64,000 bases of DNA from Eubacteriales bacterium (GCA_041672465.1 JBAYZO010000007.1:367-64366); one strand, 5' to 3'. Numbered from the stretch's first letter, positions 7,420-56,538 are shown. Notes: generated by a model from the sequence alone, not told the origin. Translations and numbers: made by a program.

Positions 7420-9147
7420 TTATGTTTCGCGCATTAGCTGAAAAGAATTTAGCAGGTTAAGGCTGCCGTACCCCCAGCGGTTGTTCGGGTAAACCATGTT
7501 TTCGCTTCGGTTGCACCCGCGTATTAAGTACGCCCTTATCTGATAAGAGCTTATAGTCGGGTCGTTGCCTCTCACAAGCCCCCATTGCAAAAGCAGCGCG
7601 GACGCCCCAGCCGTTATCGCCGCCGCGACGCTCGTTCCGTCCATTGCTCCCAGCCCATACGGGAAATAACCGCTTATATTCACCCCGGGCGCTACAAGGT
7701 CGGGGGCTAACTCGCCGGTTCTTGACGGCCCCCACGAAGTGGCGGAATAAAGGCTGTTTGTCCGGTAATTATACGCCCCGCAGACAATCGCGCCGTTCAT
7801 CGTCGCCGGGACGGTCACGGTAAAGTTGGGGTTGGTGGATAAAAATTCCACGTTTGGGGAGACAAATCCTGTCAGCGGAAGCCAAGAGTGATATGTGCCG
7901 TCAAGAATCAAGTCGCCAAAGACGGTAATTGTCCAGATCCCCTGCGTGGCGTTAATTATTCTGACGGCGCTTAGCTGGCTTCCCGTGCCCTCGAACGGGA
8001 AAAAATACGCTATTTGAACCGCGGCGTCTTCTAACTTCAGTTTTGTTTCGCTTGTTCTCCCCGCTATCGGGGGGACTCTCGGGACAAACTCGCCCGTCGG
8101 GGACCTCACCGCTACCGAAACCCTGTCGGAGACATTCGTCCAGACCCCGACAAGAAAATCCCCCGCGTTTTCCCCGACTTTGATATCAATGTTTTGGGTT
8201 TCGCCCTGAGCGCTTATCGTGCCCTCGGTATGATGTTTCGCTTGGCTTTCGTTCCCCGCGGCGATACACAAACACACGCCGGGGAGCCCGGAAATATCGC
8301 TTAAATATTCCTCAAACAAGGTGTAAGCGTCATGGCTCCCAAAATTCGAGCCGAGCCCGAGACAAATGGCGACCGGCTTTTTAAGCATTCGCGCCCTGCT
8401 TAATATATAATCCACGCCAAGCATTATCGCGCTTGACTCATAAGCGAATTCCTGTTCCGGCGGCACAGAAAATAAATTCAAATAATAAGGCCTCGCCTTT
8501 CTCAGCTTGACCATAATTATTTCCGCGTCGGGAGCGGCCCCCAAGAAATCCCCGACTTCCCTTCCCGCCGCCACTGAGGCTAAAAATGTCCCATGACCCG
8601 ACTCGTCTGTATGCGGCACGACAGAAGCCGGGTTGTCGCTTTGCAACGCCTCGTTGATTTGCTCGTTTGTGTACTCCACGCCGATATAATAATCTTCGGG
8701 GGGAGGCCCTGTTTCGCTTTGGTCATAAATATAGGCTATTTTGCTTGTGCCGTCCTCATATTTAAACACGTCAAGGGTGTAGTCGATTCCCGTGTCCACA
8801 AAGCCGACAAGCACGTTCTGACCTTTAAGGTTTAAAAAGGGCTGTTCCTGAACCTGAACAATCCCGCTGCCTTGAAGACTGGCTTTCCCTAACAACCCGA
8901 GCACAATTGAGTTAAAGCTTGCCGAACCCGTACCCAAACTATGCCTTACCTCATTGTAAACCTGCTGGGTAGCGTAAGCTATGGCGTATCTTCCGTTTAG
9001 TATGTACGCGATCGCGACCTCGTGGTTTTGGAGAATCGATTCGGTAAAAGAGTTTTTTTGAACTATAAAATCAACCGTTTCCGGGTCGTGAAGCAACCTG
9101 CGCAAAAGCTCTTGATTTTTTTCGCTGTTTATTGATAGTTTATCCAT
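7420..9147 (-). CDS. Csp-type subtilisin-like germination protease (S8 family), triad intact
   Basis: Asp VGFVDTGID, His GHGTFLASVAAG, Ser GTSVAAAITAGA. There is an insert of about 300 aa between His and Ser, as in Csp proteases. The gene lies in a csp-sleC neighbourhood. Confidence 0.8.
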   Translation of the reverse strand: MDKLSINSEKNQELLRRLLHDPETVDFIVQKNSFTESILQNHEVAIAYILNGRYAIAYATQQVYNEVRHSLGTGSASFNSIVLGLLGKASLQGSGIVQVQEQPFLNLKGQNVLVGFVDTGIDYTLDVFKYEDGTSKIAYIYDQSETGPPPEDYYIGVEYTNEQINEALQSDNPASVVPHTDESGHGTFLASVAAGREVGDFLGAAPDAEIIMVKLRKARPYYLNLFSVPPEQEFAYESSAIMLGVDYILSRARMLKKPVAICLGLGSNFGSHDAYTLFEEYLSDISGLPGVCLCIAAGNESQAKHHTEGTISAQGETQNIDIKVGENAGDFLVGVWTNVSDRVSVAVRSPTGEFVPRVPPIAGRTSETKLKLEDAAVQIAYFFPFEGTGSQLSAVRIINATQGIWTITVFGDLILDGTYHSWLPLTGFVSPNVEFLSTNPNFTVTVPATMNGAIVCGAYNYRTNSLYSATSWGPSRTGELAPDLVAPGVNISGYFPYGLGAMDGTSVAAAITAGASALLLQWGLVRGNDPTISSYQIRAYLIRGCNRSENMVYPNNRWGYGSLNLLNSFQLMRET

Positions 9148-9450
9148 TTAAGCGTCCGCCTTTCTGTTTGTTTTATTCGTTGACCCGGTATTTTTATGAC
9201 ATGACTTTTAATTAATACTCTAACAGGTATGACTATATAAAAATTTATAAATGTGTAATTTTGCCAATGTATATTCACGCTATTGAGGTTAACATACCTC
9301 GGCCTTTCGGCGGGAGCAAGCCCCCGCCCTACGCTGATGGATGCGGCTTGCGCGTTTAAATCAATATCGAAAATGCTATATAATCAAAAAGAAATATAAT
9401 ATATATATTTTGGGCGCCGCAACGTTTTTGCCGGTTTCGCGTTAGCGAAA

Positions 9451-9507
9451 TTGTGGTTTCAAAACCACAAAGATAAAAACTTGCAGCTGAAAAATTTATT
9501 TTTCAGC
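9451..9507 (-). terminator. two tandem hairpins after the upstream csp gene
   Basis: GCTGAAAAAT/ATTTTTCAGC (9486-9507) and TTGTGGTTT/AAACCACAA (9451-9470), each followed by a T-rich tract on the minus strand. Confidence 0.55.
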
Positions 9508-9509
9508 AT

Positions 9510-11201
9510 TTATTCACGGTATAATATAAGGTTATCCATCGTGGCTATCAGATCCAAAAGCCCATACCCCCATGATGAGTTGGGGTAGCTCACCGGGAAG
9601 GTTCTATTCGCGTTCCTGCAAAGGAAGGCTTTTACCTTCTGCCCGAATAAAAACACGTCGTTTTGGCGCACAATCCCCCACTCCATCATAAGAGCGGCGG
9701 CTCCCGTGACAAACGGCGCGGCAATGCTCGTTCCGGTAAACGTGTCGTACCCGCCGCCCACGGAAGTGGTCAGCACCGTGTCGCCCGGAGCGATAAGATC
9801 TGGCTTTTGGCCGTAAACAATATAAGGGAGCCCGCGGCCCGAAAAAAACGCGCAGGTGTTTTGTATCCCCGAATATCCGCCAACCGAAATAACGCTGAAC
9901 GCCGTCGCCGGTATTGAAAGGGTGTTTTCGGGGTTCGGCACTAAAAAAGCGGTTTTTTCAGTCACCATATCTGTCATTGGCAGCCAAATATTGATCCTGC
10001 CGTCGACAATAATTATCCCTTTTACGGTGAGCCGCCAGATTTCCGGTCTCATGGGGCCGCCTATGCCCTCCATTGTTATATATATTTCCTGACTGAAATT
10101 ATAATGCGTGGGCATTCCGAAAAGTACCGTCACCCTCACGTTGTCAAGCACAACGCGTGTGGCGCGGTTTACCGCGCTGATAACGCCCGACGATTGCCCA
10201 GAGGGGGATATCAGCTCTATTTCAAAGGTGTCGGCAAAATTCTTCCAAAACGTCAGGTAGAGCTGTCTTATGTTTTCACCTATGGAATACTCAATGCTTT
10301 GGGTGGCGTTTTGAGCAATTACTCCGTAATAGTGATGCCCCGCGGAACGCTCGTTCCCCGCCGCCACGCAAATAACCGTTTTCCACCGAGTGGACGCCGA
10401 ATCAAGGTACCCCTCAAACAAAGACGTGCCGTTATGAGCGCCGTCGTTGGTTCCGTAGCTTATGTTAATGGCGATGGGCATTTCAAGACCGACCGCCATA
10501 TCAATGCAAAACTTAACCCCCCGCATTATCGCGGTGCTTCTGGCGAACCCGGGCTCGACGTCTTCTTTTAGCTTAACCACCACAATCCCGGCTTGGGGGG
10601 CGACCCCGCTGTCCTCGCCGTTGCTTGAACGCCCGTTTCCCGCCGCGACTCCCGCGACTGCCGTCCCGTGGCCGAGGTTGTCAACCTCCGGCACAACAGC
10701 GGCGGGGTCGTCGCTTGTAAGGGCGAGGTCAATGTCTTCTTTTGTGTAGAGATGCCCGCTTATAAAGCCGTGCGGAGGCGAGCCTTCCGCGTTTTGATCC
10801 CACATATAAAGTATTCGGGTTTTTCCGTCGGATGTCCTGAAGTCGGGGTGAGTGTAGTCGATACCCGAATCAATTATCCCCACAAGCACTCCCGCGCCGT
10901 TTAAATTATATCCCCTCTCCTGCTGAACGTTTGTCACCCCCGTCAGGTTAAGGCTCCGCCTCAGCTGAAAAGTCAATGTTTTGGGGAGTTCGTAAAACTC
11001 CACTTCGTTTATGGTTAAGAGCTGGGGTAATTTATAGACGGGGATAACAATTATGGCGTAATTTTCGTTAAGCTCTTCCGCTTCCGCGGATAGCGACTGC
11101 GCGATATTGGCAAGACTGCCGTGATATTTAATGATTACCTCCACTTGTTCTTCGGGGTTAAGCCCCGGCAGCTGCCTGAGCAGGCGTTCTTGCGTATCCA
11201 T
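9510..11201 (-). CDS. Csp-type subtilisin-like germination protease (CspB-like), triad intact
   Basis: Asp VGIIDSGIDYTHPDF, His GHGTAVAGVAAGNG, Ser GTSIAAPFVTGAAALM. RBS GAAGGAGA. Divergent from sleC. Confidence 0.85.
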   Translation of the reverse strand: MDTQERLLRQLPGLNPEEQVEVIIKYHGSLANIAQSLSAEAEELNENYAIIVIPVYKLPQLLTINEVEFYELPKTLTFQLRRSLNLTGVTNVQQERGYNLNGAGVLVGIIDSGIDYTHPDFRTSDGKTRILYMWDQNAEGSPPHGFISGHLYTKEDIDLALTSDDPAAVVPEVDNLGHGTAVAGVAAGNGRSSNGEDSGVAPQAGIVVVKLKEDVEPGFARSTAIMRGVKFCIDMAVGLEMPIAINISYGTNDGAHNGTSLFEGYLDSASTRWKTVICVAAGNERSAGHHYYGVIAQNATQSIEYSIGENIRQLYLTFWKNFADTFEIELISPSGQSSGVISAVNRATRVVLDNVRVTVLFGMPTHYNFSQEIYITMEGIGGPMRPEIWRLTVKGIIIVDGRINIWLPMTDMVTEKTAFLVPNPENTLSIPATAFSVISVGGYSGIQNTCAFFSGRGLPYIVYGQKPDLIAPGDTVLTTSVGGGYDTFTGTSIAAPFVTGAAALMMEWGIVRQNDVFLFGQKVKAFLCRNANRTFPVSYPNSSWGYGLLDLIATMDNLILYRE

Positions 11202-20897: not shown

Positions 20898-21887
20898 TTA
20901 TACTCTCTCCAATCCTATCAAATGCGCGACAGAGGGGATCGGCAGCTTTTGAAGCACCGTTTTGGGCGAAAGCAGCGCGCCCGTGCCGATGAGAAGTATC
21001 TTTTTAACCTCGCGCCTAAGCAGCTTGTCAAAGTAAAGCGAGGCGGAAACACAAGCCAAACACCCGCAGCCCGATCCGCCGGAGTTGACGTCCTGCTTTT
21101 CATAGTCATAAATAAGCATTCCGCAGTCGGTGAGTCTGCCGCAAAGGTCAAGCCCGCACTTAGCGAACAGCTCGGCGGCTATCTCGCTCCCCTCTCTCCC
21201 CAAATCCCCGGTGGAAATAATATCGTAGTCGCAGGGGTTTTCTTTGGTCTCGTCAAAAAACCGAAGTATGGTGTCAACCGCCGCGTTAGCCATGGCGGCG
21301 CCCATATTGTTCGCGTCTGTTATGCCGTTTTCCTTAACCTTGCCGATAACGGCGGAAGAAAGCTTAACCTCCGCCGGAGTGTTTTGAAGCAAAAACGCCC
21401 CCGCGCCCGTCACGGTGTTTTGAGAAACGGGCGCGCGGAGACTTCCATACTCCAGCGGGAACCGAAACTGCCGCTCTGACGAGCAAAAATGGGAGGATGC
21501 CACGGCGACGGCGTTATTCACCTTAAACGATTCGGTAAACATGCCGCCTATTATTATCCCCTCCGCGATAGTCGAACAGGCGCCGTACAACCCGAGATAG
21601 GGTATCGGCAGGCTTTGTGCGGCAAAAGCCGTAGCGGTGCACTGGTTTAAAAGGTCGCCCCCAAGCAGTAAGCCAATATCTTTTGCCTTTAATTTTGATT
21701 TTGACAAAAGCAGGTTTATTACCCTTTGAACCATCTCGCTTTCCGCCTGCTCCCATGAATCCTGCGAAAAATAAGGGTCGGTTTCAAACAAATCAAAATA
21801 TTCCCCGAGCGGCCCCTCGTTTTCAAGCTTTCCCACAACGCTCGCGGCTTTCGCTATATAAACATTGTTAAAATAAATAACCCCCAT
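20898..21887 (-). CDS. spoVAD: stage V sporulation protein AD (thiolase-fold)
   Basis: 329 aa with SWEQAESEMVQ...GGDLLNQ...LGLYGACST motifs. It lies between spoVAC and spoVAE. Confidence 0.85.
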   Translation of the reverse strand: MGVIYFNNVYIAKAASVVGKLENEGPLGEYFDLFETDPYFSQDSWEQAESEMVQRVINLLLSKSKLKAKDIGLLLGGDLLNQCTATAFAAQSLPIPYLGLYGACSTIAEGIIIGGMFTESFKVNNAVAVASSHFCSSERQFRFPLEYGSLRAPVSQNTVTGAGAFLLQNTPAEVKLSSAVIGKVKENGITDANNMGAAMANAAVDTILRFFDETKENPCDYDIISTGDLGREGSEIAAELFAKCGLDLCGRLTDCGMLIYDYEKQDVNSGGSGCGCLACVSASLYFDKLLRREVKKILLIGTGALLSPKTVLQKLPIPSVAHLIGLERV

Positions 21888-24729: not shown

Positions 24730-24826
24730 ATTTGTAAAAAATTCCCCGCGCCAATTTCTCTTACCGTCAAAAGCCGGACAGGCATTTTAAGGGCGAAATA
24801 TGAATAGTATAACCGGGGGGGATTTT

Positions 24827-25528
24827 ATGTTTTCGCTTTTTATTAGTTTTCTTTCCAAAGCGGTGGCTTTATTTTTAAGGTCGCAGCGCACCGGTTCTTT
24901 TCCCCCGCCGCTGGACAAAAAAAGAGAGCGGGAGCTGTTTATAAAAGCCAAAGACGGCGATATGAAAGCCCGCAACACGCTTATAGAGCATAACCTTCGG
25001 CTTGTCGCCCATATCGTTAAAAAATATTATACCTCATACAAGGATCAGGACGATTTAATCTCCGTCGGGACGATAGGGCTTATAAAAGCCATTGACACAT
25101 ACGACATTGAAAACGGCGCCCGTTTCGCTACATACGCGGGGAAATGCCTGCAAAACGAGATACTTATGTACTTCCGCGCCCAAAGGAAAAACAGCCTTGA
25201 AAACTCCCTGAACGATCCCGTCGACACCGACAAAGAGGGCAACCCGCTGACTTATCTTGATATCCTCTGCGACGACGACGATATAATTGACGAGATTGAT
25301 ATCCGTATCAAGTCAACGCTTGTCTACAAGGCGCTAAGAGAGGCGCTCAACGAAAGGGAACGAAAAATAATAGCCATGAGATACGGCCTTGACGGCAGCG
25401 GGCACTATCAGGCGCAGCGCGAAGTAGCCGCCGCGCTGGGGATCTCCCGCAGTTATGTTTCAAGAATCGAAAAAACAGCGCTGGACAAAATCAACGTCTA
25501 TATGACCAAAAGAGGGGGAAACTGCTGA
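24827..25528 (+). CDS. sigK: RNA polymerase sporulation sigma factor SigK (pro-form, uninterrupted)
   Basis: LIEHNLRLVAHIVKKY, DDLISVGTIGLIKAIDTY and ATYAGKCLQNEILMYFR. The hydrophobic pro-sequence MFSLFISFLSKAVALFL precedes GSFPPPL. The ATG at 24827 lies 5 nt after GGGGGG; an alternative start is at 24800. Confidence 0.85.
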   Translation: MFSLFISFLSKAVALFLRSQRTGSFPPPLDKKRERELFIKAKDGDMKARNTLIEHNLRLVAHIVKKYYTSYKDQDDLISVGTIGLIKAIDTYDIENGARFATYAGKCLQNEILMYFRAQRKNSLENSLNDPVDTDKEGNPLTYLDILCDDDDIIDEIDIRIKSTLVYKALREALNERERKIIAMRYGLDGSGHYQAQREVAAALGISRSYVSRIEKTALDKINVYMTKRGGNC

Positions 25529-29050: not shown

Positions 29051-29360
29051 GGTTTTTCTCCTTTTGTAATTTACTGATCGAATAAATATAAAGGCCATAA
29101 ATTTGCTGTAACAAGCTCTGCCGGGGGTTGCCGTTAAAAATAATAAATCCGCCGTTATTATTTCGGAATTTTACCGGGTTTTGCGCAAATAAAACCCACT
29201 ATTTCTTTAAATTTACAATAACTTAACATTTTATATTTTTGAGCGTGATATACTTTTTTATACAAAAATTTATGGTTTTATCACATTTGGCTAACATTTA
29301 CGGGGAGTTTGTTTTCCCAAAAGCGTTAGTAAAAACCAACTGAAAGAAAGGGTTTTGTTT

Positions 29361-30893
29361 ATGCGACTAAAAGCAATTGCCTGCCTTCTGTTATGCTTTG
29401 TTTTAATCTCCGCCATTCTTGCCGGATGCGCGGATAACGGCAATGAAAACTCAAGCGGCCAAGAAAGCGTTCCCGCCGGTTCAGAAGCTTCCCAAACCAG
29501 CGAACCGGTCAGCACCGAAGACGACCCGTATAGGGACGAGGCGGGAATATATTCCGCCAAACACCTCCCGGCGTTTGATGACGACTGGAAATCATACGAA
29601 GAGTTCCGGGTACTGGTCTATTCCGACGAATCCCAAAAAACCTATTATTCAGAAGAAATCGAACCCCTTTACGACACCACCGACCAAGCTATCATCGACG
29701 GAGTGAACACGCGAAATGCTTGGATATCCGACAATTACGGCATTACAGTCAGAGCTATCCCCGTCCCGGACGTGCTTGCCACGGTCAGAGCCGAAATGTC
29801 GGCGTACAGCGATATGTTCGACGCCGCGATGCCTTTTATGAGCGCCTGCGCGGTGCTGTCGCAGGAGGGCGTGCTTTACGACCTTTGCGAATTTTCCGAT
29901 TATATCGATCTTGACGCGCCTTGGTGGGATGACAACGCGACAAAATCCATGTCGATCGGCGACAGGGTTTATTTCACCACCGGCGATATGTCTATTATGC
30001 AAAAGATCGTGTCTTCCGGCGTGGCTTTTAACAAAACGCTGCTTAACGACCACTTCCCCGGCGTTGACTTATATCAAATCGTCGATGAGGGAAAATGGAC
30101 GCTTGATAGGCTTTACTCCATGAGCAAAGAAATCACGACTCAGCTCGTTGACGACGGCGTTATGGACGAAAACGACCTTTGGGGCTGCGTTGACACCGGT
30201 CCGTCTTTCTTCTACGGTTCGGGCGAACAGCTTGTCACCAAAGACGCCGACAACAAGCCCATGCTTTCATTGGGGAGCACGCAGAGATCAATCGACGTCG
30301 CCCAAAAGGTGCTGACTATTTCCATAGAGACAAAGACTTGGCTTGCCACGGTTGCCGACTGGACCGACAGAAGCGATATTTACGGAATGATTGTTAAAGT
30401 TTTCGGGGAAGACCGCTCGCTGTTTATGCTGTTCCACTTCTCTGCCATTAAAAAGCTAAGGCCGTATGACGCGCAGTTCGGCATTATCCCCGCCGCGAAA
30501 TATGACGAGGAACAGGACGGCTATTTTACAAAATGCTCGGCTTATTCGGCATACGGCACATGCCTGCCGCTCTGCGTAAAGGATCCTGAATTTTCCGCTT
30601 ATATGTGCGAACTCATGGCGATCGGCGGCAAAAACAATATTTCCAACGCTTATTACAACGTGGTGCTTAAGGGTAAGGATATTAAAGACGAGGCTTCCGA
30701 GCGCATGCTTGACCTTATATTCAACAATATCTTATACGACCCCGCCATTGTCTATGGCTTTTCGGGACTTAACAACATTTTCACGACTTTGATATCAAAG
30801 AAATCCACCGATATCTCTTCTACGCTTGAATCCATGAAAGACAGTATTAATCTGGCTATTGATGAAGTTATAGACGCTTACGAAAATTATTGA
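29361..30893 (+). CDS. extracellular solute-binding-protein-like lipoprotein (paralogue 1)
   Basis: Lipobox ILAGC. Motifs PWWDD, GKWTLDRL, FGIIPAAKYDEEQDGY, ERMLDLIFNN and IDEVIDAY are shared with the paralogues at 32374 and 40873. Confidence 0.75.
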   Translation: MRLKAIACLLLCFVLISAILAGCADNGNENSSGQESVPAGSEASQTSEPVSTEDDPYRDEAGIYSAKHLPAFDDDWKSYEEFRVLVYSDESQKTYYSEEIEPLYDTTDQAIIDGVNTRNAWISDNYGITVRAIPVPDVLATVRAEMSAYSDMFDAAMPFMSACAVLSQEGVLYDLCEFSDYIDLDAPWWDDNATKSMSIGDRVYFTTGDMSIMQKIVSSGVAFNKTLLNDHFPGVDLYQIVDEGKWTLDRLYSMSKEITTQLVDDGVMDENDLWGCVDTGPSFFYGSGEQLVTKDADNKPMLSLGSTQRSIDVAQKVLTISIETKTWLATVADWTDRSDIYGMIVKVFGEDRSLFMLFHFSAIKKLRPYDAQFGIIPAAKYDEEQDGYFTKCSAYSAYGTCLPLCVKDPEFSAYMCELMAIGGKNNISNAYYNVVLKGKDIKDEASERMLDLIFNNILYDPAIVYGFSGLNNIFTTLISKKSTDISSTLESMKDSINLAIDEVIDAYENY

Positions 30894-30902
30894 GCGTCCC
30901 CC

Positions 30903-30933
30903 CAAAAAAGCCCCTTTATCGGGGCTTTTTTGT
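30903..30933. terminator. bidirectional hairpin terminator
   Basis: AAAAAAGCCCC-TTTATC-GGGGCTTTTTT. Confidence 0.75.
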
Positions 30934-34022: not shown

Positions 34023-35021
34023 TCAACTGAAAAAGAGCTGGAGCAAATAAACGATAAGATAAAGAACACCGAAATAAAGTAAAATCTTTGGCACTATCAT
34101 TTTATTCTTGCGCTGTTTTATTCGCTCTTCTTCCGCGAGGCGCTGAATTACCTTTTCATATGACTTTATCTTTTCTTCTATCTCTTTGTCGGTCTCTTCC
34201 CGTCTGGAATTATTAAAACCGGCTTTGTCGCGGAGGTGCGGGTCGCTCTCCCGCTTTAAAACCTTAACGGTTTCTTCAAGATTTGTCTCGTTAATGTTTT
34301 GAAGCAGCCAATCGCGGTCTCTTTCGCAGACCCGGCACTTTGTGTCGGCCAGTATATTTTTATTGCCGCAGCAGCAGAGCCAAACCTCCTGCGTGACCAC
34401 GGGAATAACCCGCGACGGGTGGAATTCCTCCGCGCCCGAGTATATGTTGACTTTGGAAAAGGCGTATTTCTTCTCGTCGTCGAGTTCGGAAATTCTCTTG
34501 CACTTATTGGCGACGATAACGCCGATTTTTTGTTCTTTTCCGCCGGCGTAGACAACATTTACTATTTCAAGCGCGGCTTTTCTGAAGTACGCCTCGGGGA
34601 TTTTAATATAAGACGCTCTTCCGAAAGACTCATAGGTTTCAATATCCCCGGCAATGCCGTCCCTTTTAAAAAGCCTTGCGTAAAAAGGCTTTTTAACTTT
34701 CCCCGGCCTTTCCCTTACGCCGAGGGTAAACTCGTCTTCCGAATAAACAAAGGGGATTTTTATGTAGGGAAGGTTTGAGTTTTGGTAGAGCAGCAGCCTT
34801 ACCGAAAGCGAAACGACGCTGTTTTTTGAGAGGTTCTGAAAGGTAAACGAGGCGAAAATTTCATTTGTCGCGATATCGCTGACGATATACCCCTCCTGAA
34901 CCTGAACGGGCGAGCCCTCTATAATCCCCGAAAAGTCAAAATACTCGACGACTCTGAGCATTCTTCTCTTGTCGTTTTTAATTCGTTTTATTCGCGCTTT
35001 TAGTTCTTTTGTTTTTTTCAT
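34023..35021 (-). CDS. hypothetical tail-anchored protein with an internal zinc-ribbon-like motif
   Basis: CCCGNKNILADTKCRVCERD, then a coiled charged segment and a C-terminal TM helix (IVPKILLYFGVLYLIVYLLQLFF). It starts 28 nt downstream of dppA. Confidence 0.5.
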   Translation of the reverse strand: MKKTKELKARIKRIKNDKRRMLRVVEYFDFSGIIEGSPVQVQEGYIVSDIATNEIFASFTFQNLSKNSVVSLSVRLLLYQNSNLPYIKIPFVYSEDEFTLGVRERPGKVKKPFYARLFKRDGIAGDIETYESFGRASYIKIPEAYFRKAALEIVNVVYAGGKEQKIGVIVANKCKRISELDDEKKYAFSKVNIYSGAEEFHPSRVIPVVTQEVWLCCCGNKNILADTKCRVCERDRDWLLQNINETNLEETVKVLKRESDPHLRDKAGFNNSRREETDKEIEEKIKSYEKVIQRLAEEERIKQRKNKMIVPKILLYFGVLYLIVYLLQLFFS

Positions 35022-37240: not shown

Positions 37241-37285
37241 AAACAAACGCCTTAAGCAAAAACTTAAAGCGTTTGTTTTTTTTTT
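37241..37285. terminator. hairpin terminator (10-bp stem) between abrB and the convergent membrane-protein gene
   Basis: AAACAAACGC (37241-37250) pairs with GCGTTTGTTT (37269-37278), followed by a T-run. Confidence 0.7.
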
Positions 37286-37290
37286 GCGGT

Positions 37291-38076
37291 TTATTGGGCT
37301 TTTCCCGCGCCGGCGAACCAAAGCAGGCTCATTTCGCTGTTATATTTAAATATCATAATCATAAACAACGCGTTTGAAAGCACCGCGGGGATCGAAGTCA
37401 AGAGCGCAGTTACGGAAAACTCATCCGCCGTAAACACCATTATCAGCAAAAAAGCCGCGATTATAAGCAATATAACGGCCATTAAAACGGGGATCTTCTT
37501 TGCCGAGCGGCCCGATACCGCTTTTATAAGGCGGCTGAGGGAGATTAGCGCGAACACAAAATAAACCGCGACAATCGCCCCGAGAATGAACATCGCCGCC
37601 CCAAAAACTTTTATAATAAAATCTTCCGTAAAGTTATATTCTTCAAGCAACGAACCCGCTCCGATTTCGTCAAAGTAAGCGGTCAGGCTGCCGGTTCCCA
37701 CGGCGTTAAAAAATTCAATAATAAAATAGATAAAAACCAATCCCAAAATACAAGCGAGTACAATCAGCGTGGTTTTTATCGCTTTAAGCCCCCTTGGGCT
37801 TAGCGATGATTGGCCGCCAAGACTTTTCTTCCTCGCCGAAATAAAAAAGTGCAGCAGCCCTATAAAAATAATAACCGAAGGGGCTTGAAAAATCAGCATC
37901 GTCGGGTCGAACTCGCTGTCGGCTAACAATAAAATTAAGCTTAGCAAAAAATCGACGCCGTACAAAACAGTCCCCGCCAAAAACAAAGCGCTGCTCCCGA
38001 GCCTTTTTAACGTTTCTGTTACCAAGCCGTTACCCTCCGGGACTGTTAAAGAATTTGTCTTTTCAGTTTCGCTCAT
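37291..38076 (-). CDS. polytopic membrane protein (about 6 TM), function unknown
   Basis: Repeated hydrophobic helices. RBS AAAGGAGAG. It lies directly downstream of the DUF4855-like gene. Confidence 0.6.
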   Translation of the reverse strand: MSETEKTNSLTVPEGNGLVTETLKRLGSSALFLAGTVLYGVDFLLSLILLLADSEFDPTMLIFQAPSVIIFIGLLHFFISARKKSLGGQSSLSPRGLKAIKTTLIVLACILGLVFIYFIIEFFNAVGTGSLTAYFDEIGAGSLLEEYNFTEDFIIKVFGAAMFILGAIVAVYFVFALISLSRLIKAVSGRSAKKIPVLMAVILLIIAAFLLIMVFTADEFSVTALLTSIPAVLSNALFMIMIFKYNSEMSLLWFAGAGKAQ

Positions 38077-38094
38077 TTGTTGACTCTCCTTTTA

Positions 38095-38119
38095 CAAACC
38101 CCGCTTACAGCGGGGTTTG
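38095..38119 (-). terminator. intercistronic hairpin (10-bp stem), weak terminator or mRNA stabiliser
   Basis: CAAACCCCGC pairs with GCGGGGTTTG. On the minus strand it is followed by TAAAAGGAGAG, which is the next gene's RBS, and there is no clear U-run. Confidence 0.45.
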
Positions 38120-38132
38120 TCGTTTTAGTAAA

Positions 38133-40721
38133 TTATTTTGTTATCTTAACCGTGAACTCTACAATTTCGGTGTAAAAACCATACGAAACGCTTAGGATAA
38201 AGCTATCCTCGCCCACAAAGTCCGCCATGGGGATGTAGATAAAACTGCCGTCTTTGTCGGCGGCGACCGCGCCGTATTTGGCGGCGATTTTAACGGCGGC
38301 GCCAAGCTCCTCGCCATTTGTGCCGATAAGCTTATCTTTTAGAGTTTCATTCTTTTTAACGGTAAACTCGGTTTTGGCGACTTTAAAGCCGGAATTTGTA
38401 AGCAGCCGCTTTGCGTAGAGATAGGTCACGTCGTACAAAGACCTCACATACGGGTCGCTTGAGTTATAAGCGGCGTAATACACCCCGGGGCCGGCGTCCT
38501 GATAATACATCTTAATCGCGTTCATATACCCCATCTCAACCCCCGCTTTGAGGTAAACGAGATATCTGTCGTGATATTCTACAGAGCTGATAGCCTTGCC
38601 GGAAATTTCAATCTCCACGCCCATTCCAAGCGTTTTGGTTGTGCGGGCGTTGGAGTAAACCACTTCTTCGGTATAGTCCTCGTTAAACATATAGTTTGGC
38701 TGCATGTTGGCAACGTCAAAGCCCATGGCTTTCCACTGCGTGAACCCCGGTGAGTTCAAATACGGTATCCACACGGCTTTATAACCCAGCGAGTGTATAT
38801 AATCGGTGGCAAAGAGAATAGTTTGCTTGTAGAGCGGTTCGGAGAGCGAGAGCGACTCGTCATACCAGTAAAATCCCACAAGCTTTTGGTTTTCAAAACC
38901 GCGCTCGGTATATCTCTCTATCTGTCTGTCTATCCACCATTTGACCACTTTTTTGCGGTCGGCAAGGATCGACATGTTTTCGGTTATTCCGTCGCCGTCC
39001 ACATCGCCGAAGTTTCTGCATCTGATATCGGGGTTGAAGACGCTTAAAAACACATTGACCTGATAATCCGGTTGGTTCAGTTTTGTTTTTACCTCCTCCA
39101 CCGCCGCCTCAAGCGCGTTTACGTTGACATTTTCAAAAAACAGGTCGTTTTCATAGTCCAGCCAGTCGCTTTTTATTGAATATTTCTCCTGCCCGGTAAA
39201 CAGTTTTCCGCCCGAGGGCAAGACTGTAGAGCAGGGGAGATAAAGGTACGAATCAAAAAAGAAGTCTTGCAGTTCGCCGTCGGTGTTATAATACCCCACA
39301 TAGGGCAGATATTCGGTTTTTGTCGTTCTTCCCGCGGAAACGTTTTCGGTTTTATAGTTATAGGCGAGAAGAATATTCTCGCTGCCGTCAAGCAAATCCG
39401 GCGACGGGTAGCCCAATTCTTCTTCTTTTTCGTCGGGGACGATAGTTTTCGCGGAACTTGAAATCGCCTTTGTGCCCCAGACCTCCAGCTCGTCAAGCCA
39501 AATAAGCGCAGATACAGTAAACCGGAACTTTACAAACCTTGCTTTGTAGGGGGAATCAAAATCATAACTTAGGGTAGTCCTTGAATAAGAGAGATAGGGG
39601 AAATCGGTTGAGTCTTTAGTCAGCACCGTCTGCCAGTCAACGGCGTTTTCGGATATTAACACCGAAAGCCCGTCGGGAAACACAATACCGTAATCAGTCA
39701 AAATAAATATGCCGACGGCGGCTTTGGTGACTTCTGAAATTTTCCCCAAGTCATATATAATCGAGCGCGTCGCGCCCTGAGTTATATGAAAATAAGCGGG
39801 GTTAAGGTAATTGGTATCCCCGAACTTGCCGTTTGTCAGCACTTTTGAGGCGGCGGGAGTGTTATAGTAATCGGTCTTATGAGCCGATTTTAAGGAAATG
39901 CCCGAATAAACCCGCTGGCCTAACCCGAAAATTAAGTTTTTACGGGTGTTATAATCTTCATCGGTTTCATCCCAATACTCCGCCGTTATATTTTCCGGCA
40001 GCGGTTCGTTGATATAATATTCTTGGTTGTCGGAGGAACTGTCCTGACCAACGGTAAAAACCTTTATCCCGTCCACAAGCGTCCACTGGGAGACAAATCC
40101 CGTGAGCACCACCTTGACAAAAGCGGCGTCAAAAGTGAACTGCGTATAGGCGGCATGTTTGTAAACTTGGCTGGTTCCGATAACGCTTGGATATTTAAAC
40201 GAAGTCGCCGCCTTTATATATTCAACCCCGTCGGCGGATACCCAAAATTCGGCTGTCTTTGTGACGCCTTTGCCCGAAGACGAGTCATACAGATTATTTA
40301 TTGAAAAACCGCCGAGATTTGTCTTGAGCCCGCCCAAATCGACAATTATTTCAATATCATTTTTGCCGAGAAAACCCACCCATTTGTCGCCGTCTGCGGG
40401 GAGAGCGTCGTCGTTGTCGGTCAGCTTTTTGCCGTCGTCGGGGTAATTTTTATAGCTTTCAAGGTTTATAGTATAGGAATTCCCATTAATAATATTTACA
40501 TATTCATATTTTTCGGGGAGCTCGCCTGTATAAATACCGTCTATTTTTGCCGCGAGCAATTGCGCGGCAAGTTCTTCCTCGTTATAGGAAACTTCTTGCG
40601 AGGTTTCATCCCCCGGCTCGCTGTCTTCTGAGTTCTGCCCCGCGGGGGAAGGTTTTCCGCAAGCAGTCATCAGCGGGAGTATAAGCCCGGTTAGAAGCAA
40701 TAGTGCTAAGAGTTTTTTCAT
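38133..40721 (-). CDS. lipoprotein with two discoidin (F5/8 type C)-like domains and a C-terminal DUF4855-like GH-like domain
   Basis: The ATG at 40721 gives MKKLLALLLLTGLILPLMTAC (lipobox). Discoidin-like patterns are KLTDNDD...IIVDLGG...WVSADGVEY and LTNGKFGD...IIYDLGK...ISENAVDWQ. The C-terminal part has YLPYVGYY...FFFDSYLYLP...LVGFYWYDESL...WIPY. Confidence 0.6.
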   Translation of the reverse strand: MKKLLALLLLTGLILPLMTACGKPSPAGQNSEDSEPGDETSQEVSYNEEELAAQLLAAKIDGIYTGELPEKYEYVNIINGNSYTINLESYKNYPDDGKKLTDNDDALPADGDKWVGFLGKNDIEIIVDLGGLKTNLGGFSINNLYDSSSGKGVTKTAEFWVSADGVEYIKAATSFKYPSVIGTSQVYKHAAYTQFTFDAAFVKVVLTGFVSQWTLVDGIKVFTVGQDSSSDNQEYYINEPLPENITAEYWDETDEDYNTRKNLIFGLGQRVYSGISLKSAHKTDYYNTPAASKVLTNGKFGDTNYLNPAYFHITQGATRSIIYDLGKISEVTKAAVGIFILTDYGIVFPDGLSVLISENAVDWQTVLTKDSTDFPYLSYSRTTLSYDFDSPYKARFVKFRFTVSALIWLDELEVWGTKAISSSAKTIVPDEKEEELGYPSPDLLDGSENILLAYNYKTENVSAGRTTKTEYLPYVGYYNTDGELQDFFFDSYLYLPCSTVLPSGGKLFTGQEKYSIKSDWLDYENDLFFENVNVNALEAAVEEVKTKLNQPDYQVNVFLSVFNPDIRCRNFGDVDGDGITENMSILADRKKVVKWWIDRQIERYTERGFENQKLVGFYWYDESLSLSEPLYKQTILFATDYIHSLGYKAVWIPYLNSPGFTQWKAMGFDVANMQPNYMFNEDYTEEVVYSNARTTKTLGMGVEIEISGKAISSVEYHDRYLVYLKAGVEMGYMNAIKMYYQDAGPGVYYAAYNSSDPYVRSLYDVTYLYAKRLLTNSGFKVAKTEFTVKKNETLKDKLIGTNGEELGAAVKIAAKYGAVAADKDGSFIYIPMADFVGEDSFILSVSYGFYTEIVEFTVKITK

Positions 40722-40756
40722 TAATATAACCATTCCTTAAAAAAAAATATAAACAA

Positions 40757-40832
40757 TAAAGCGCGGTTACGCGCGGCGGCCGTTACCGTTGGTACACCGG
40801 GAGCAAACCGGCTTGGCGCGCGCAACCACGCT
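40757..40832 (-). terminator. long branched GC-rich stem followed by a U-tract (terminator/attenuator) between the SBP paralogue 3 gene and the DUF4855-like gene
   Basis: On the minus strand, GCGUGGUUGCGCGCG pairs with CGCGCGUAACCGCGC (15 bp, two G-U). This encloses a 41-nt interior with small hairpins (GCCGG/CCGGU, UACC/GGUA), followed by UUUAUUGUUUAUAUUUUUUU and the next RBS. Confidence 0.5.
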
Positions 40833-40846
40833 TTTTAATTAGTTAC

Positions 40847-40878
40847 AATTAATTGAAAAATAAATTTTTCAATTAATT
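40847..40878. repeat. perfect AT-rich palindrome overlapping the stop codon of SBP paralogue 3
   Basis: AATTAATTGAAAAAT (40847-40861), AA, ATTTTTCAATTAATT (40864-40878). The arms are 15 bp. Confidence 0.8.
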
Positions 40879-42408
40879 ATTTAAGAACGCGTCTATCGCG
40901 TTTTCAATAGCTGTCTCATATATGCTTTGCTTTTGTTCATAAACAGTGGAAATTTTGTTTTCCGGTCTTTGACCCAAAAGCGAAGTATAGAACTGAATCA
41001 TAACGTCGTTGCCCACGCCGAAGTTGTAGACCGTTGACATATCATAAGTTCTGTTTCTGAAAATAAGGTCAAGCATTCTTTCGGATTCCTCATCTTTAAG
41101 CTTTTGACCCTTAAGAACCATTTCATAGTACGCGGGGGTGATAATCTTTTGCCCGTGATACGCCATCGCCTCAAGGAAGAACAAAGTGGCGTCAAGGTTC
41201 TGGTCGTTTGTAATGGGCACGCCGACCACTTTAAGCCAGTAAACAGTACCCGAGGCGGTATAGTCGTCCTGATTGACATCGAACTTTGGCATTGGTATTA
41301 TACCGTAATCGACTTCCGCCTCAAGAAGCGTCGAGCCGGTGGCGGAGCTTATAGCCTGAGGCATAAACAAAGCGTTGCCGTTAGCAAAGATTTGTGTAGC
41401 CTTTCCATAAACACCAGAAGTATAATGGCCGAAAAAGTCGGCAACACCGACATGGTCTCCGTCGGTCATAATGTTAAAAACTTTGTTCCAAGCGTTTACG
41501 TTCGCGTTTTCCATAATTCTTATAACCGGAAGGTCGTCATTATCCTTATGAACCATTGACTGTCCGCAGCCAAGCATAAACATAAGCCCGTCATATGTTT
41601 GAGAAACCATTCCCCATCTGTCTTCATCGGCCGGCTCAAAAGACATTTTGTCTCCATGCTTAAGTACAACTTCCTTTGCCATTTCATGGAGCTTATCAAG
41701 CGTCCATTCGCCGTCCTCAACAAGCGCATAGGGGTTTTCAAGCCCAAATTCGGTAATCATTCCCTTGTTAAAGAACATAGCCCATGTGGACTCGTCATCG
41801 GTAACGCAAATGTCACCGGTGAGGAAGAACAGCTTGTTTCCCATTGAAAGGTCGCGGATAGCGGTTTGATCCCACCAAGAGGCGTCAAAATTGAGGTATC
41901 CGTTTCCGCCGTTAACCTCGCCGTTGATCTCGTAAAGGTCTAAATACCAGCCGTTTAAGGTGGATTCGGCCATATACATCGCGCCGTCGGCGACAATATC
42001 CAGCTCAAGCCCGCCGCTTATGGATTTTTCAACTTCAGCCTTTGAGCTGCCTATGCCGGTGGAATATATCATGTTAAGATTTATGCCGTACTTGTCCTGC
42101 ATAAGGCGGGTGCGCTCGATAACTGCCGTGACAACGACGTCCTCTTCGGCTTCATCCCACCAAAATTCGTGTTCGCAATAATAATTGGGATTCGGCACAA
42201 GCATTATTAGTTCGGTGTTCCAATTTTTGTCCGGTAAAAGAAGCTGCTCGGAAGGTTCGGAAGTCTCCTCGGACCCATTGGAAGTGACGGGGCCGCCGTT
42301 TGAAGATTCTTCGCTCGCCTTGCTTTCACCCTCATTACCTCCGCCGCAGGCCGCAAGTGTTAAAATCACCATAAACGCGACCAGCATTAAAGCGATGAGC
42401 TTTTTCAT
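40873..42408 (-). CDS. extracellular solute-binding-protein-like lipoprotein (paralogue 3)
   Basis: The ATG at 42408 gives MKKLIALMLVAFMVILTLAAC (lipobox). Motifs SWWDQ, GEWTLDKL, YGIIPMPKFDVNQDDY, ERMLDLIFRN and IENAIDAF. Confidence 0.75.
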   Translation of the reverse strand: MKKLIALMLVAFMVILTLAACGGGNEGESKASEESSNGGPVTSNGSEETSEPSEQLLLPDKNWNTELIMLVPNPNYYCEHEFWWDEAEEDVVVTAVIERTRLMQDKYGINLNMIYSTGIGSSKAEVEKSISGGLELDIVADGAMYMAESTLNGWYLDLYEINGEVNGGNGYLNFDASWWDQTAIRDLSMGNKLFFLTGDICVTDDESTWAMFFNKGMITEFGLENPYALVEDGEWTLDKLHEMAKEVVLKHGDKMSFEPADEDRWGMVSQTYDGLMFMLGCGQSMVHKDNDDLPVIRIMENANVNAWNKVFNIMTDGDHVGVADFFGHYTSGVYGKATQIFANGNALFMPQAISSATGSTLLEAEVDYGIIPMPKFDVNQDDYTASGTVYWLKVVGVPITNDQNLDATLFFLEAMAYHGQKIITPAYYEMVLKGQKLKDEESERMLDLIFRNRTYDMSTVYNFGVGNDVMIQFYTSLLGQRPENKISTVYEQKQSIYETAIENAIDAFLNN

Positions 42409-42442
42409 ATAACCAAAATACCCCCTTGTTAATTTTCTATTT

Positions 42443-42471
42443 ATTATATAGTTTTTTTTGGTCAAAGTCAA
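42443..42471 (-). promoter_or_regulatory. sigma-A type promoter P1 for SBP paralogue 3
   Basis: Minus strand: TTGACT (42471-42466), 17-nt spacer, TATAAT (42448-42443). Confidence 0.55.
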
Positions 42472-42579
42472 TGTAATTTATAAAATTTAACCTAAAACGC
42501 CGCGATTCGTAAGCCAAATGTTGTGCCTTTTTATTTAAATAAAAATAATATAAAAAAGAATTATGGTTTGTTTTTACAC

Positions 42580-42608
42580 ATTATACAAATTATCCTATAA
42601 AAAGTCAA
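42580..42608 (-). promoter_or_regulatory. sigma-A type promoter P2 (distal, extended -10)
   Basis: Minus strand: TTGACT (42608-42603), 17-nt spacer ending in TG, TATAAT (42585-42580). Confidence 0.55.
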
Positions 42609-42711
42609 TAAAAATATATACTTTAACGTGATTATTTATAATGGCTAAAAATTTTTTATACTAACAAAGCCGTTTGATGCCCGGGCAAAAATCCGCTAAA
42701 AGCCGCCTTGA

Positions 42712-51857: not shown

Positions 51858-51886
51858 TTGACATAAAACCCTTTTTAGTGTATATT
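51858..51886 (+). promoter_or_regulatory. sigma-A type promoter (extended -10)
   Basis: TTGACA (51858-51863), 17-nt spacer ending in TG, TATATT (51881-51886). Confidence 0.55.
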
Positions 51887-54734: not shown

Positions 54735-54765
54735 GCGGCGGACGTTTTATCGTCCGCCGCTTTCA
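54735..54765 (+). terminator. intercistronic hairpin terminator (10-bp GC stem)
   Basis: GCGGCGGACG (54735-54744) pairs with CGTCCGCCGC (54751-54760), followed by TTTCAT. Confidence 0.6.
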
Positions 54766-54801
54766 TATACAATGAGCGTAATAAAATTACCGGGGGTTAT
54801 T

Positions 54802-56538
54802 ATGACAAAAAAACATTATTTGCTGACTTTTTTAGCGGGCGTTTTGATTTTTCCCCTCTTTTTGTTTTCGGCGAACGCCGGCGGCGGAAAATTATATGAA
54901 AAGCAACCCGAGCCAAAACCGGAAAGCCTTTTGTCAAAGGGGATTACCCCTATCACCGGCACATTCATTCAGCCGTGGCTGTATACGCACTTCACCCCGG
55001 AGAGGTGGGAAAAAGAGCTTGACTTTTGGGAAGAGCTGGGCGTGGAATATATTATTATGGGGGACACCCTCACCTGCTCCGCCACTCCGATAAACGACCC
55101 GTCAAAGTGGGTTATCACCGCGTATTACGACACAAAAAACCCCTCTTTTAATAAGGGGAAGGATTATTTAAGCCTTATTTTTCAAAAGTGCTCCGAGCGG
55201 GGGATCAAAGTTTTTTCGGGTATAGGCAACACGCTTGACCTCTGGCCATATCTCGGCCCCTCCGCGCCGGGCTTTGACAACGTTTGTACGCTGTTTGCCG
55301 AGGTTGCCGAGGACTTGTACAGCTCTTATTATGAAAAATATCCCGAAACCTTCGCGGGGTTTTATTTCGTGCCGGAATTGTTTAACTCGTCAGCCTTTGA
55401 CACAGAAGCGGCGCGGGGAAAATATGTAACTAAAATCGCCTCCGGTTTTAATATTATTTTTGAAACAATAAACCGCGTTGACAGCTCATTGCCGTTTATT
55501 CTCTCGCCTTATGTCAATATGTTCGGCGGGGATTGGGTTTCAAAGTCACCTCAGAACATATCGCTGTTTTGGAAAGAACTGCTGGCGGAGAGCGGGTTCC
55601 GCGACGGCGACATCCTCTGTCCTCAGGACAGCATGGGAGCCGGCGGGGCTGATTTAACGCTGCTGGGCGAGGTTACCGCCGCGTACAAAGCCGCCGTCGA
55701 CGGCTGCGGGAAAGACATAAAGCTTTGGTCAAACTGCGAGATATTTGAACAGCCGACAGGCAAGTTTTATGATAACTATGACGGCTACGGGTACTGGGGT
55801 TCCGCCACCATTGACAGGATGACAAGCCAGTTTCAGGTTGTCGCGCCGTATGTGGAAAGAATTTTCGCTTTTGCCGCCCCCCATTATCTCTCCCCCAACA
55901 ACACGGTGGACGGGTATTACGACTCTTATAAATTTTATTTGGAACACGGAATACTTGACCCGTCGCCCCCAACCCCGCCAACTGAGTTCAGAACGATTTA
56001 TCAGTTTGTCTCGGGTAAAAAGACGCTTTGCGTTTGCTTTTCGGGGATGTATGACAACCTTGGGATACATAAAGTAAATATTTACAAAGACGGCGAGCTT
56101 TTTACCTACCGTCTCGCCACGCGGAACGAGAGCGGATCTGTGGGCGAAATTTACCCCAACAATTTTATTGACCTTGATTATGACCCGCAAACAAATGAAT
56201 CTGTAACGTATGAGTTTGAGGTGATTGACTGCTCCGGCAATAAAAGCGGCCGGGTTTCATTTACGGTTGAACCCGGCTCGGTGCCTAACAATATCCGCCT
56301 GTCGCCTTTTTACAACGGCCCGACCGAAAACAAGCCGTTTTACCCCGGCGATATTGACGGCGACTTTAAGCTGACGTCTTCGGATCTGGCAAAAGTTAAA
56401 CTGCATATCTTGGGTCTTGACGCCATGGACGATGGCGGCGTAAAGTCCGCCGATATGGACTCAAACGGAGCGGTAAATATAACCGATTATATCACTCTCT
56501 GGCGCGAAGTTAAAAAGAGCGCTGAAACCGATGAGTAA
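54802..56538 (+). CDS. secreted DUF4434-like (GH-like TIM barrel) protein with a C-terminal type-I dockerin
   Basis: Signal peptide ...FLFSANA. ITGTFIQPWLYTHFTPERWEKELDFWEELGVEYII and FAGFYFVPE match the DUF4434 pattern. The dockerin repeats are DIDGDFKLTSSDLAKV and DMDSNGAVNITDYITL. Confidence 0.7.
   Translation: MTKKHYLLTFLAGVLIFPLFLFSANAGGGKLYEKQPEPKPESLLSKGITPITGTFIQPWLYTHFTPERWEKELDFWEELGVEYIIMGDTLTCSATPINDPSKWVITAYYDTKNPSFNKGKDYLSLIFQKCSERGIKVFSGIGNTLDLWPYLGPSAPGFDNVCTLFAEVAEDLYSSYYEKYPETFAGFYFVPELFNSSAFDTEAARGKYVTKIASGFNIIFETINRVDSSLPFILSPYVNMFGGDWVSKSPQNISLFWKELLAESGFRDGDILCPQDSMGAGGADLTLLGEVTAAYKAAVDGCGKDIKLWSNCEIFEQPTGKFYDNYDGYGYWGSATIDRMTSQFQVVAPYVERIFAFAAPHYLSPNNTVDGYYDSYKFYLEHGILDPSPPTPPTEFRTIYQFVSGKKTLCVCFSGMYDNLGIHKVNIYKDGELFTYRLATRNESGSVGEIYPNNFIDLDYDPQTNESVTYEFEVIDCSGNKSGRVSFTVEPGSVPNNIRLSPFYNGPTENKPFYPGDIDGDFKLTSSDLAKVKLHILGLDAMDDGGVKSADMDSNGAVNITDYITLWREVKKSAETDE

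Follow-up and report, generated by a model that had tools for sequence, protein, structure and literature searches.

What does a sugar-binding lipoprotein do when no transporter is encoded beside it? This question is raised by a 64,000-nucleotide (nt) stretch of DNA from Eubacteriales bacterium (GCA_041672465.1 JBAYZO010000007.1:367-64366; hereafter the window), in which three minus-strand genes, denoted A, B, and C, follow one another between 42.6 and 37.2 kb. Gene A encodes a lipoprotein that resembles the substrate-binding protein (SBP) of ATP-binding cassette (ABC) importers, gene B a lipoprotein with carbohydrate-binding domains and a DUF4855 domain, and gene C a polytopic membrane protein. 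A preliminary description of this locus, cassette 1, had read it as a surface module in which the SBP hands a glycan to the enzyme independently of any ABC importer. We favor a different reading, which we consider about equally likely to be right or wrong: cassette 1 would be a minimal surface glycan-use module without translocator genes of its own, and its orphan SBP would serve a distally encoded, shared translocator of the carbohydrate uptake transporter 1 (CUT1) type.

The first step in the argument is the identity of gene A. Its N-terminus, MKKLIALMLVAFMVILTLAAC, is a lipoprotein signal peptide with the lipobox LAAC and the invariant Cys. The protein has no Pfam match of its own (E ≤ 0.01), stays below the Pfam thresholds for SBP_bac_1 and SBP_bac_8 (PF01547/PF13416), and has no NCBIfam or PDB sequence match. 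Among its 161 homologues, many carry these SBP domains, including homologues at 37-61% identity, and the family profile reaches the sugar SBPs 6q5g and 6h0h at 5e-5. An AlphaFold2 (AF2) model built from 42 sequences has a predicted local distance difference test (pLDDT) score of 88.9. Searched with Foldseek, the model matches M. tuberculosis UgpB at 8e-14 with a target-normalized template modeling (TM) score of 0.70. The best 50 PDB matches are nearly all sugar or glycerophosphodiester SBPs of ABC importers (E 1e-13 to 1e-11), among them UgpB, MalE1-3, RafE, CbpB, AbnE, and GltA, with target-normalized TM scores of ∼0.55-0.70. The predicted structure thus confirms gene A as a two-lobed type II periplasmic-binding-protein fold of the CUT1 sugar-binding type, and the earlier designation as SBP-like is borne out by the fold, although not by a Pfam match of gene A itself.

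If gene A is an SBP, is a dedicated permease encoded nearby? A comparison of every large open reading frame (ORF) of the window with Pfam returned no BPD_transp_1 permease or other ABC component, and no permease stands beside either of the two gene A paralogues in the window. The SBP family was then scanned across one genome per GTDB species, which yielded 69 loci (1.02 Mb), all of them in uncultured gut and digester Clostridia, for example Ruminococcus sp. CAG:382 and Clostridiales bacterium UBA1389. These loci, designated here by L and a number, contain ∼100 genes of the family, which frequently form tandem arrays of 2-4. A BPD_transp_1 gene within 10 kb was found in 1 of the 69, L034, by an iterative hidden Markov model (HMM) search, and a comparison of all 100 polytopic ORFs with Pfam agrees. 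No CUT1 permease occurs among the 88 immediate neighbors (gap ≤ 400 bp) of the family genes. Across the 86 families represented by these neighbors, F5/8 type C (7) and DUF4855 (6) are the most frequent, and the rest are housekeeping genes. The density of CUT1 permeases is low throughout the ∼2 Mb of related DNA. The absence of ABC components, which had been described for cassette 1, therefore holds for the window, and the absence of CUT1 permeases within 10 kb holds for the family at 68 of 69 loci.

The exceptional locus is informative in its own right. L034 comes from an Oscillospiraceae metagenome-assembled genome (MAG). A co-directional run there begins with the gene for a TOBE-domain ABC ATPase and continues with two BPD_transp_1 permease genes, the gene for an SBP of another subfamily (533 aa), one for a 295-aa protein without a Pfam match, and finally a DUF4855 gene (548 aa). 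Upstream of this run, at a distance of 2.4 kb, is a member of the gene A family, and a NUDIX gene also stands just upstream. L034 places DUF4855 directly in the context of ABC sugar import, and it shows that lineages of this SBP family do possess CUT1 translocators.

The partner gene in cassette 1 is gene B. Translation more likely begins at the ATG at 40721, since an identical database protein has 862 aa. Its lipobox is LMTAC. The DUF4855 domain (PF16147) is matched at E 4e-96 over model positions 1-312 of 313, with 322 bits where the gathering cutoff is 27. The second of two discoidin domains is matched by Pfam F5_F8_type_C (PF00754; E 1e-8, 35.3 bits against 28.2). By profile, positions 91-243, the first discoidin domain, match the CBM32 of 6q63 (9e-8), 4a42, and 2w1q, and positions 310-420 match neuropilin b domains. 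The AF2 model (pLDDT 87.1) contains two jelly-rolls, alternating strands and helices at 453-775, and, at 789-865, an all-beta tail that weakly matches Big_9 and Cadherin_5. Foldseek returns mostly tandem discoidin proteins for this model, the ZmpB CBM32 pair of Clostridium perfringens among them (E ∼1e-11). The architecture claimed initially is thus supported, the DUF4855-like domain with LVGFYWYDE by Pfam and the two discoidin-like domains by Pfam, profile, and structural searches.

Within the DUF4855 barrel, the acidic residues D494, E626, D673, E707, and E709 are invariant across 26 homologues. E626 stands just after strand 4, in LVGFYWYDE, and E707 and E709 are on strand 7, in GMGVEIEI. 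Retaining hydrolases of glycoside hydrolase (GH) clan GH-A have a (beta/alpha)8 barrel with Glu residues at the ends of strands 4 and 7. As modeled, the DUF4855 glutamates are placed where a retaining hydrolase of this clan would have them, from which we infer that gene B may have hydrolase activity.

The two genes recur together outside the window. In the clade of gene A, a family SBP gene and a DUF4855 gene are adjacent and co-directional in the window, L008, L009, and L010/L077, and likewise in L014/L079. They are adjacent and divergent in L029 and L023, and one gene apart in L013. A deep-branching SBP clade is co-directional with a shorter DUF4855 paralogue in L138, L141, L142, and L148. 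A neighbor-joining tree distributes the adjacent pairs over at least three separate SBP clades, and two orientations are represented. In L003 and L008 the gap between the two genes is only ∼4-21 nt. DUF4855 and discoidin proteins are the only recurrent carbohydrate-related neighbors of the family SBP genes.

How the three genes might be transcribed is suggested by the sequence around them. Two sigma-70-like promoters, P1 and P2, precede gene A, each matching the consensus at 11 of 12 positions. They are the only exact TTGACT-N17-TATAAT sites in the window, where shuffled sequences predict 0.01. Both, within 42423-42640 on the minus strand, are alike over ∼45 bp upstream, with an AT-rich module GTTAAA..TAT..ATTGACTTT located 5' of the -35 hexamer, which suggests a duplicated promoter module or a repeated operator. 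The preceding gene is cytidylate-kinase-like and has a GC-rich inverted repeat followed by a T run just past its stop codon; we therefore take gene A to open a new transcription unit. No promoter-like site was found between either intergenic hairpin and the start codon that follows it (genes B and C), and only ∼36 nt separate the foot of the first helix (40757) from the gene B start codon. The layout described at the outset, with strong tandem promoters before the SBP gene alone and structured hairpins before downstream genes that lack promoters of their own, was recovered in full.

The 139-nt gap between genes A and B contains two structures. The first is a perfect AT-only inverted repeat, with arms AATTAATTGAAAAAT and ATTTTTCAATTAATT, located just 5' of the second, a branched GC helix; the repeat could be a protein-binding site or a second hairpin. 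The GC helix (40832-40757) folds as described previously: the 161-nt segment reaches -57 kcal/mol against -37 ± 4 for shuffled sequences (z about -4.8). Viewed as an intrinsic terminator, it is a 76-nt branched structure with a strong stem followed by UUUAUUGUUUAUAUUUUUUUUU, and its tail reads UUUAUUGUUU. It was not found elsewhere in the window. Genes B and C are separated by 56 nt, and here a second hairpin is present as reported (38119-38095) but with a stem of 12 bp rather than 10. On the coding strand the hairpin is followed by AAAAGGAG, with AAAAGGAGAG as the ribosome-binding site of gene C, and not by a U-tract. On that strand it is therefore not a simple intrinsic terminator, in which a U-tract would come directly after the GC stem.

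Similar structures occur in orthologous loci. A strong GC hairpin with a short U run lies 3' of the orthologous SBP gene in L009, L005/L077, and L014/L079, and a hairpin stands directly 5' of the gene C orthologue in L003, L005, L009, and L011. The positions are the same and the sequences are unrelated. Since position is kept and sequence is not, the comparison supports the hairpins as functional punctuation, which may attenuate transcription or stabilize the upstream mRNA.

Taken together, we propose the following scheme. Gene B would be a lipid-anchored extracellular enzyme whose two CBM32 domains hold a complex glycan while the DUF4855 barrel cleaves or trims it, with E626 and E707/E709 as the candidate catalytic pair. 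Gene A, a lipid-anchored oligosaccharide-binding protein of CUT1 fold, would capture the released oligosaccharide and pass it to a CUT1 ABC translocator whose genes lie at another place in the genome and which would be common to the many paralogous orphan SBPs of the lineage. Glycan would then flow from enzyme to SBP. This is the conventional order, in which the SBP receives the enzyme product, and it is the reverse of a hand-off from SBP to enzyme. The two strong promoters would drive gene A, genes B and C would be reached by read-through, and the structures that precede these two genes, the branched element and the hairpin, would lower downstream transcription or stabilize upstream mRNA. The binding protein would thereby be made in excess over the enzyme and the 6-transmembrane protein, the latter having at most a presumed part in the module.

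There is precedent for an orphan SBP of this kind. In E. coli, MppA is established as an orphan SBP that uses a translocator encoded elsewhere, OppBCDF (PMC3173086), and distal translocator use has been proposed for orphan LT-SBP homologues of Bifidobacterium (PMC8110962). Gene A shares with these proteins the absence of adjacent permease and ATPase genes, a conventional SBP fold, and a paralogue expansion that would give one translocator several specificities. It differs in that its whole family is orphan, is multi-copy in each genome, and is often arrayed in tandem, in that its translocator is only assumed, and in that it is partnered by a surface enzyme gene rather than by nothing.

Other known systems resemble parts of cassette 1. 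In E. coli malEFG, an intercistronic hairpin makes the binding protein in excess. Cassette 1 likewise has its SBP gene first, a stable hairpin directly 3', and downstream genes without promoters of their own, but these genes do not encode transporter subunits, and the structure, whose role is predicted, is branched, 76 nt long, and GC-paired, with U-rich sequence at its tail. A Gram-positive polysaccharide utilization locus (PUL) co-locates enzyme, transport system, and regulator. Between 37.2 and 42.7 kb, the SBP is the only such transport component, and no permease, ATPase, regulator, or cytoplasmic glycosidase is encoded. The use of xyloglucan by Ruminiclostridium cellulolyticum combines a cellulosome with ABC import of oligosaccharides (PMC4780118). 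Shared with such loci are a CBM-bearing extracellular enzyme encoded with an oligosaccharide-binding lipoprotein and, in cassette 2 (below), a dockerin-bearing enzyme. The enzyme domain here, in contrast, is an uncharacterized DUF rather than a CAZy family.

The DUF4855 domain also occurs in Bacteroides thetaiotaomicron BT0442, which is listed directly after the BT0438-40 block, comprising a GH89-type alpha-N-acetylglucosaminidase and a SusC/SusD pair (PMC10434189). This context of glycan capture and uptake would fit a DUF4855 role in glycan foraging. Gene B differs by its two CBM32 domains, Ig-like tail, and lipid anchor, and by its partner, a Gram-positive SBP lipoprotein rather than SusC/SusD. 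In the library searched, DUF4855, DUF4434, PF16147, and BT0442 had one incidental mention each and no functional study. By these comparisons, cassette 1 is a variant of orphan-SBP and Gram-positive glycan-use modules, and with cassette 2 it is built on two uncharacterized enzyme domains.

Several observations weigh against this reading. The translocator is an assumption, with none identified in the DNA read. A 575-aa homologue of gene A, P0066, has a cleavable signal peptide and an N-terminal two-repeat dockerin in place of the lipobox, which implies anchoring through a cohesin scaffold rather than through lipid, and such an arrangement would fit scaffold-bound capture at least as well as transport. 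For DUF4855, sequence and profile searches of the PDB returned no solved relative, and no independent match of its fold to a GH family was obtained, since the discoidin domains account for most Foldseek matches of the full-length model. Weak U-tracts make a terminator function uncertain, and in L003 no hairpin lies between the SBP and DUF4855 genes; there the SBP gene is duplicated and its last copy nearly abuts the DUF4855 gene. The linkage of the two families is itself incomplete. No SBP gene adjoins the DUF4855 orthologues of L006 (45% identity) and L007 (29%). In a metagenome scan anchored on DUF4855 (78 loci, 0.96 Mb), most loci have no family SBP within 10 kb and many hold tandem DUF4855 arrays. 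Synteny with L003 and L005 runs on into HAD, peptidase M55, and other genes, and that part reflects relatedness rather than function.

These last points lead to the alternative that survives best, namely that the three genes are functionally unrelated neighbors, brought together by shared ancestry and high copy number, and that the hairpins are ordinary terminators. Besides the continued synteny through housekeeping genes and the solitary DUF4855 orthologues, it draws on the relatives, in which a TTGAC(T/A)-17-TATAAT promoter and a terminator belong to each of the neighboring genes, an observation that also bears on the read-through layout. Gene C, moreover, travels with neither family. Because both families are multi-copy, their co-occurrence within 10 kb is not clearly above background, and the excess lies in direct adjacency. 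It is this direct adjacency, in at least three clades and in both co-directional and divergent form, that a chance arrangement explains poorly, as it does the rank of DUF4855 and discoidin proteins among the immediate neighbors, the near-abutting genes of L003 and L008, and the lack of a promoter-like site, and of space for one, between the 40757 helix and gene B. We thus regard the chance arrangement as unlikely and judge the linkage of SBP and DUF4855 to be real but facultative. The association across genomes expected from the preliminary description accordingly recurs, although it is not universal.

We also hold unlikely, and place next in order, the model of that description, in which the SBP lipoprotein works without an ABC translocator, captures glycan at the surface, and holds or presents it to the DUF4855 enzyme, loosely in the manner of SusD. 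It would account for the lack of permeases beside the ∼100 family members (L034 excepted), for the low CUT1 permease density, and for the recurring adjacency. It would also suit the dockerin of P0066 and the dockerin-bearing enzyme of cassette 2. The fold, however, groups gene A with conventional transport SBPs, and in L034 a DUF4855 gene is linked to a complete ABC operon. In type II binding proteins the closed cleft buries the ligand, and a closed-cleft SBP would be a poor presenter of substrate. Because most family SBPs have housekeeping neighbors and no enzyme partner, presentation to an enzyme cannot be their general role. Given the fold, L034, and the orphan-SBP precedent, the ABC-independent hand-off is not supported. 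A broader form of the same idea is quite improbable: that a large undescribed SBP-fold clade in uncultured Oscillospirales-like Clostridia has left ABC transport altogether for lipid- or dockerin-anchored glycan capture with DUF4855-type enzymes, as a Gram-positive SusD analogue.

Least probable, and in our view very unlikely, is that the SBP lipoproteins report glycan availability to membrane kinases or regulators, with cassette 1 as a sensing-plus-enzyme unit: SBP-activated sensor kinases are documented (PMC11113362), and some family members adjoin a HAMP/HisKA histidine kinase (L004/L012) or AraC-type regulators (L007, L034), but histidine kinases make up only 2 of the 88 immediate neighbors, no regulator or kinase lies in cassette 1 or beside the window's paralogues, and two promoters so close to consensus suggest an abundant product, a trait of capture proteins more than of sensors.

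The orphan status of the family would have practical consequences. For gut and digester MAGs, ABC importers and their substrate range are routinely inferred from sugar SBP genes. Because a whole multi-copy SBP family is encoded without permeases, SBP counts would give too high a figure for the transporters of these lineages. Sharing of one translocator by many SBPs would let substrate breadth evolve cheaply, through duplicated SBP genes; should they work without a translocator, the SBP fold would have a new role in Gram-positive glycan foraging, and genomes without any CUT1 translocators would make the family much more interesting. The pairing also offers a handle on DUF4855, since the ligand of the adjacent SBP should resemble the enzyme product. 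The same handle applies to DUF4434, with a different SBP-like partner. The features discussed here and below are collected in Table 1.

Table 1. Positions of the features of cassettes 1 and 2 and of related genes, counted in the window unless a related locus is named
Feature	Position	Strand	Remarks
P1, distal sigma-70-like promoter	42580-42608	-	TTGACT-17-TATAAT, 11/12 consensus match
P2, proximal sigma-70-like promoter	42443-42471	-	TTGACT-17-TATAAT, 11/12; ∼38 nt 5' of gene A start codon
Gene A, 510-aa lipoprotein	40873-42405	-	predicted CUT1-type sugar SBP fold; ATG at 42405
AT-only inverted repeat, perfect, 15 bp	40847-40878	-	overlaps gene A stop codon
Branched GC-rich helix with U-rich tract, genes A/B	40757-40832	-	terminator-like/attenuator element; RNA fold
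Gene B, lipoprotein	38133-40733	-	866 aa; CBM32-CBM32-DUF4855-Ig-like tail
12-bp GC hairpin	38094-38120	-	directly 5' of gene C ribosome-binding site; z -4.5
Gene C, 261-aa membrane protein	37291-38076	-	six predicted transmembrane segments; hydropathy
Terminator-like hairpin ending cassette 1	37241-37278	-	convergent with 80-aa plus-strand ORF
Paralogous orphan SBP-family lipoprotein	29355-30893	+	30% identity to gene A, BLASTP 2e-57
Paralogous orphan SBP-family lipoprotein, 527 aa	32374-33957	-	25% identity to gene A, BLASTP 2e-36
Cassette 2 promoter	51858-51886	+	11/12
Cassette 2 SBP-like lipoprotein, 935 aa	51913-54720	+	SBP domain residues 156-477, long C-terminal extension
Cassette 2 hairpin, 10 bp, 9 GC	54735-54760	+	between SBP-like and DUF4434 genes
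Cassette 2 secreted DUF4434 protein with type I dockerin	54772-56538	+	Pfam DUF4434 2e-27, Dockerin_1 4e-7
Discoidin-only gene	L003 15887-17251; L005 12762-14165; L009 7452-8903; L011 11696-13123		
CUT1 ABC operon with DUF4855, Oscillospiraceae MAG	L034 12743-19967		co-directional run

The product of the third gene of cassette 1 had been called an unknown polytopic membrane protein, and its six hydrophobic segments and lack of Pfam and NCBIfam matches agree. A search of 1.84 billion representative proteins returned 6 clusters, with only five relatives of gene C, and a general partnership with the SBP family was rejected on this count. Among the loci fetched, homologues are confined to the closest ones, at 28-32% identity against 56-73% for the neighboring genes. 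Gene C thus appears to be a fast-evolving, lineage-specific membrane protein, tied to genes A and B by position only, as far as the comparison of loci indicates. In orthologous loci, an extra discoidin-only gene encoding 454-483 aa lies between the DUF4855 and 6-transmembrane genes. This gene, which the window lacks, has its own TTGAC(T/A)-17-TATAAT promoter in L003 and L005, and in L011 it directly follows the SBP gene with no DUF4855 gene present.

A layout like that of cassette 1 had also been noted at 51.9-56.5 kb, and cassette 2 indeed consists of a promoter, an SBP-like lipoprotein gene, a hairpin, and a gene for a DUF4434 protein. Residues 156-477 of the 935-aa lipoprotein match the Streptococcus pneumoniae SBPs 5swa/5mlt, and also 5suo, in the PDB (E 6e-13). 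Past the SBP domain is an extension of ∼400 aa without a family match, with the acidic run EEGEGEEGEEGEEPEPTEEE at its end. For the profile of the DUF4434 (PF14488) family, a match at 2.5e-9 was obtained to PDB 4h41, whose deposited name is 'putative alpha-L-fucosidase'. The gene pair is kept in L155 and L157 and is absent from the more distant L156. DUF4434 occupies the place in cassette 2 that DUF4855 has in cassette 1, and their GFY..E motifs look similar, but the homology that this parallel would imply was rejected (hhalign probability 3%, no cross-matches at Pfam E ≤ 10), and the likeness is one of layout only. The 935-aa protein was likewise rejected as a paralogue of gene A, BLASTP and hhalign aligning the signal peptide only; its SBP-like character comes from a different lineage. 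The two cassettes appear, on these alignments, to be analogous rather than homologous.

Several other genes were considered as ABC permeases and set aside. The 292- and 324-aa genes at 49.8-51.7 kb, divergent from cassette 2, encode SPFH/Band 7 proteins, and the membrane-protein genes of ∼280 and ∼807 aa that follow distant SBP paralogues encode BacA and FtsK. Four loci have convergent BPD_transp_2 pairs next to SBPs, which were judged unrelated given their orientation and different transporter class. In L057, L058, L060, and L061, tandem arrays of 3-4 SBP paralogues have same-strand genes of ∼620-650 aa on both sides. Their reading as YesM-like kinases looks wrong, the recurrent neighbors being radical-SAM/DUF3362 and housekeeping genes and kinases being as rare as noted above; judging from the per-family neighbor counts, they are probably housekeeping genes of the radical-SAM/DUF3362 type. 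Full-length CBM32-CBM32-DUF4855 genes occur in head-to-tail arrays of 2-4 paralogues in L081-L092, from human gut and other metagenome contigs, several of which are only 4-9 kb long; no SBP or permease lies on the DNA fetched.

Elsewhere in the window, the plus-strand SBP paralogue is followed by a canonical terminator at 30903-30932, and an orthologue of the 527-aa paralogue holds the same syntenic position in L005. Between the latter gene and that of a peptidase M55 lies a minus-strand gene (34023-35021) for a 332-aa protein with a C-terminal transmembrane anchor and no family match, which is kept at the same position in L003 and L005 with 52-57% identity. No Rfam match to a known RNA family or riboswitch occurs anywhere in the window. 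Sporulation and germination genes at 7420-11201, 20898-21887, and 24800-25528, which encode a CspB-like subtilase with a Csp prodomain, SpoVAD, and a sigma factor, suggest that the organism is an endospore-forming member of the Clostridia.

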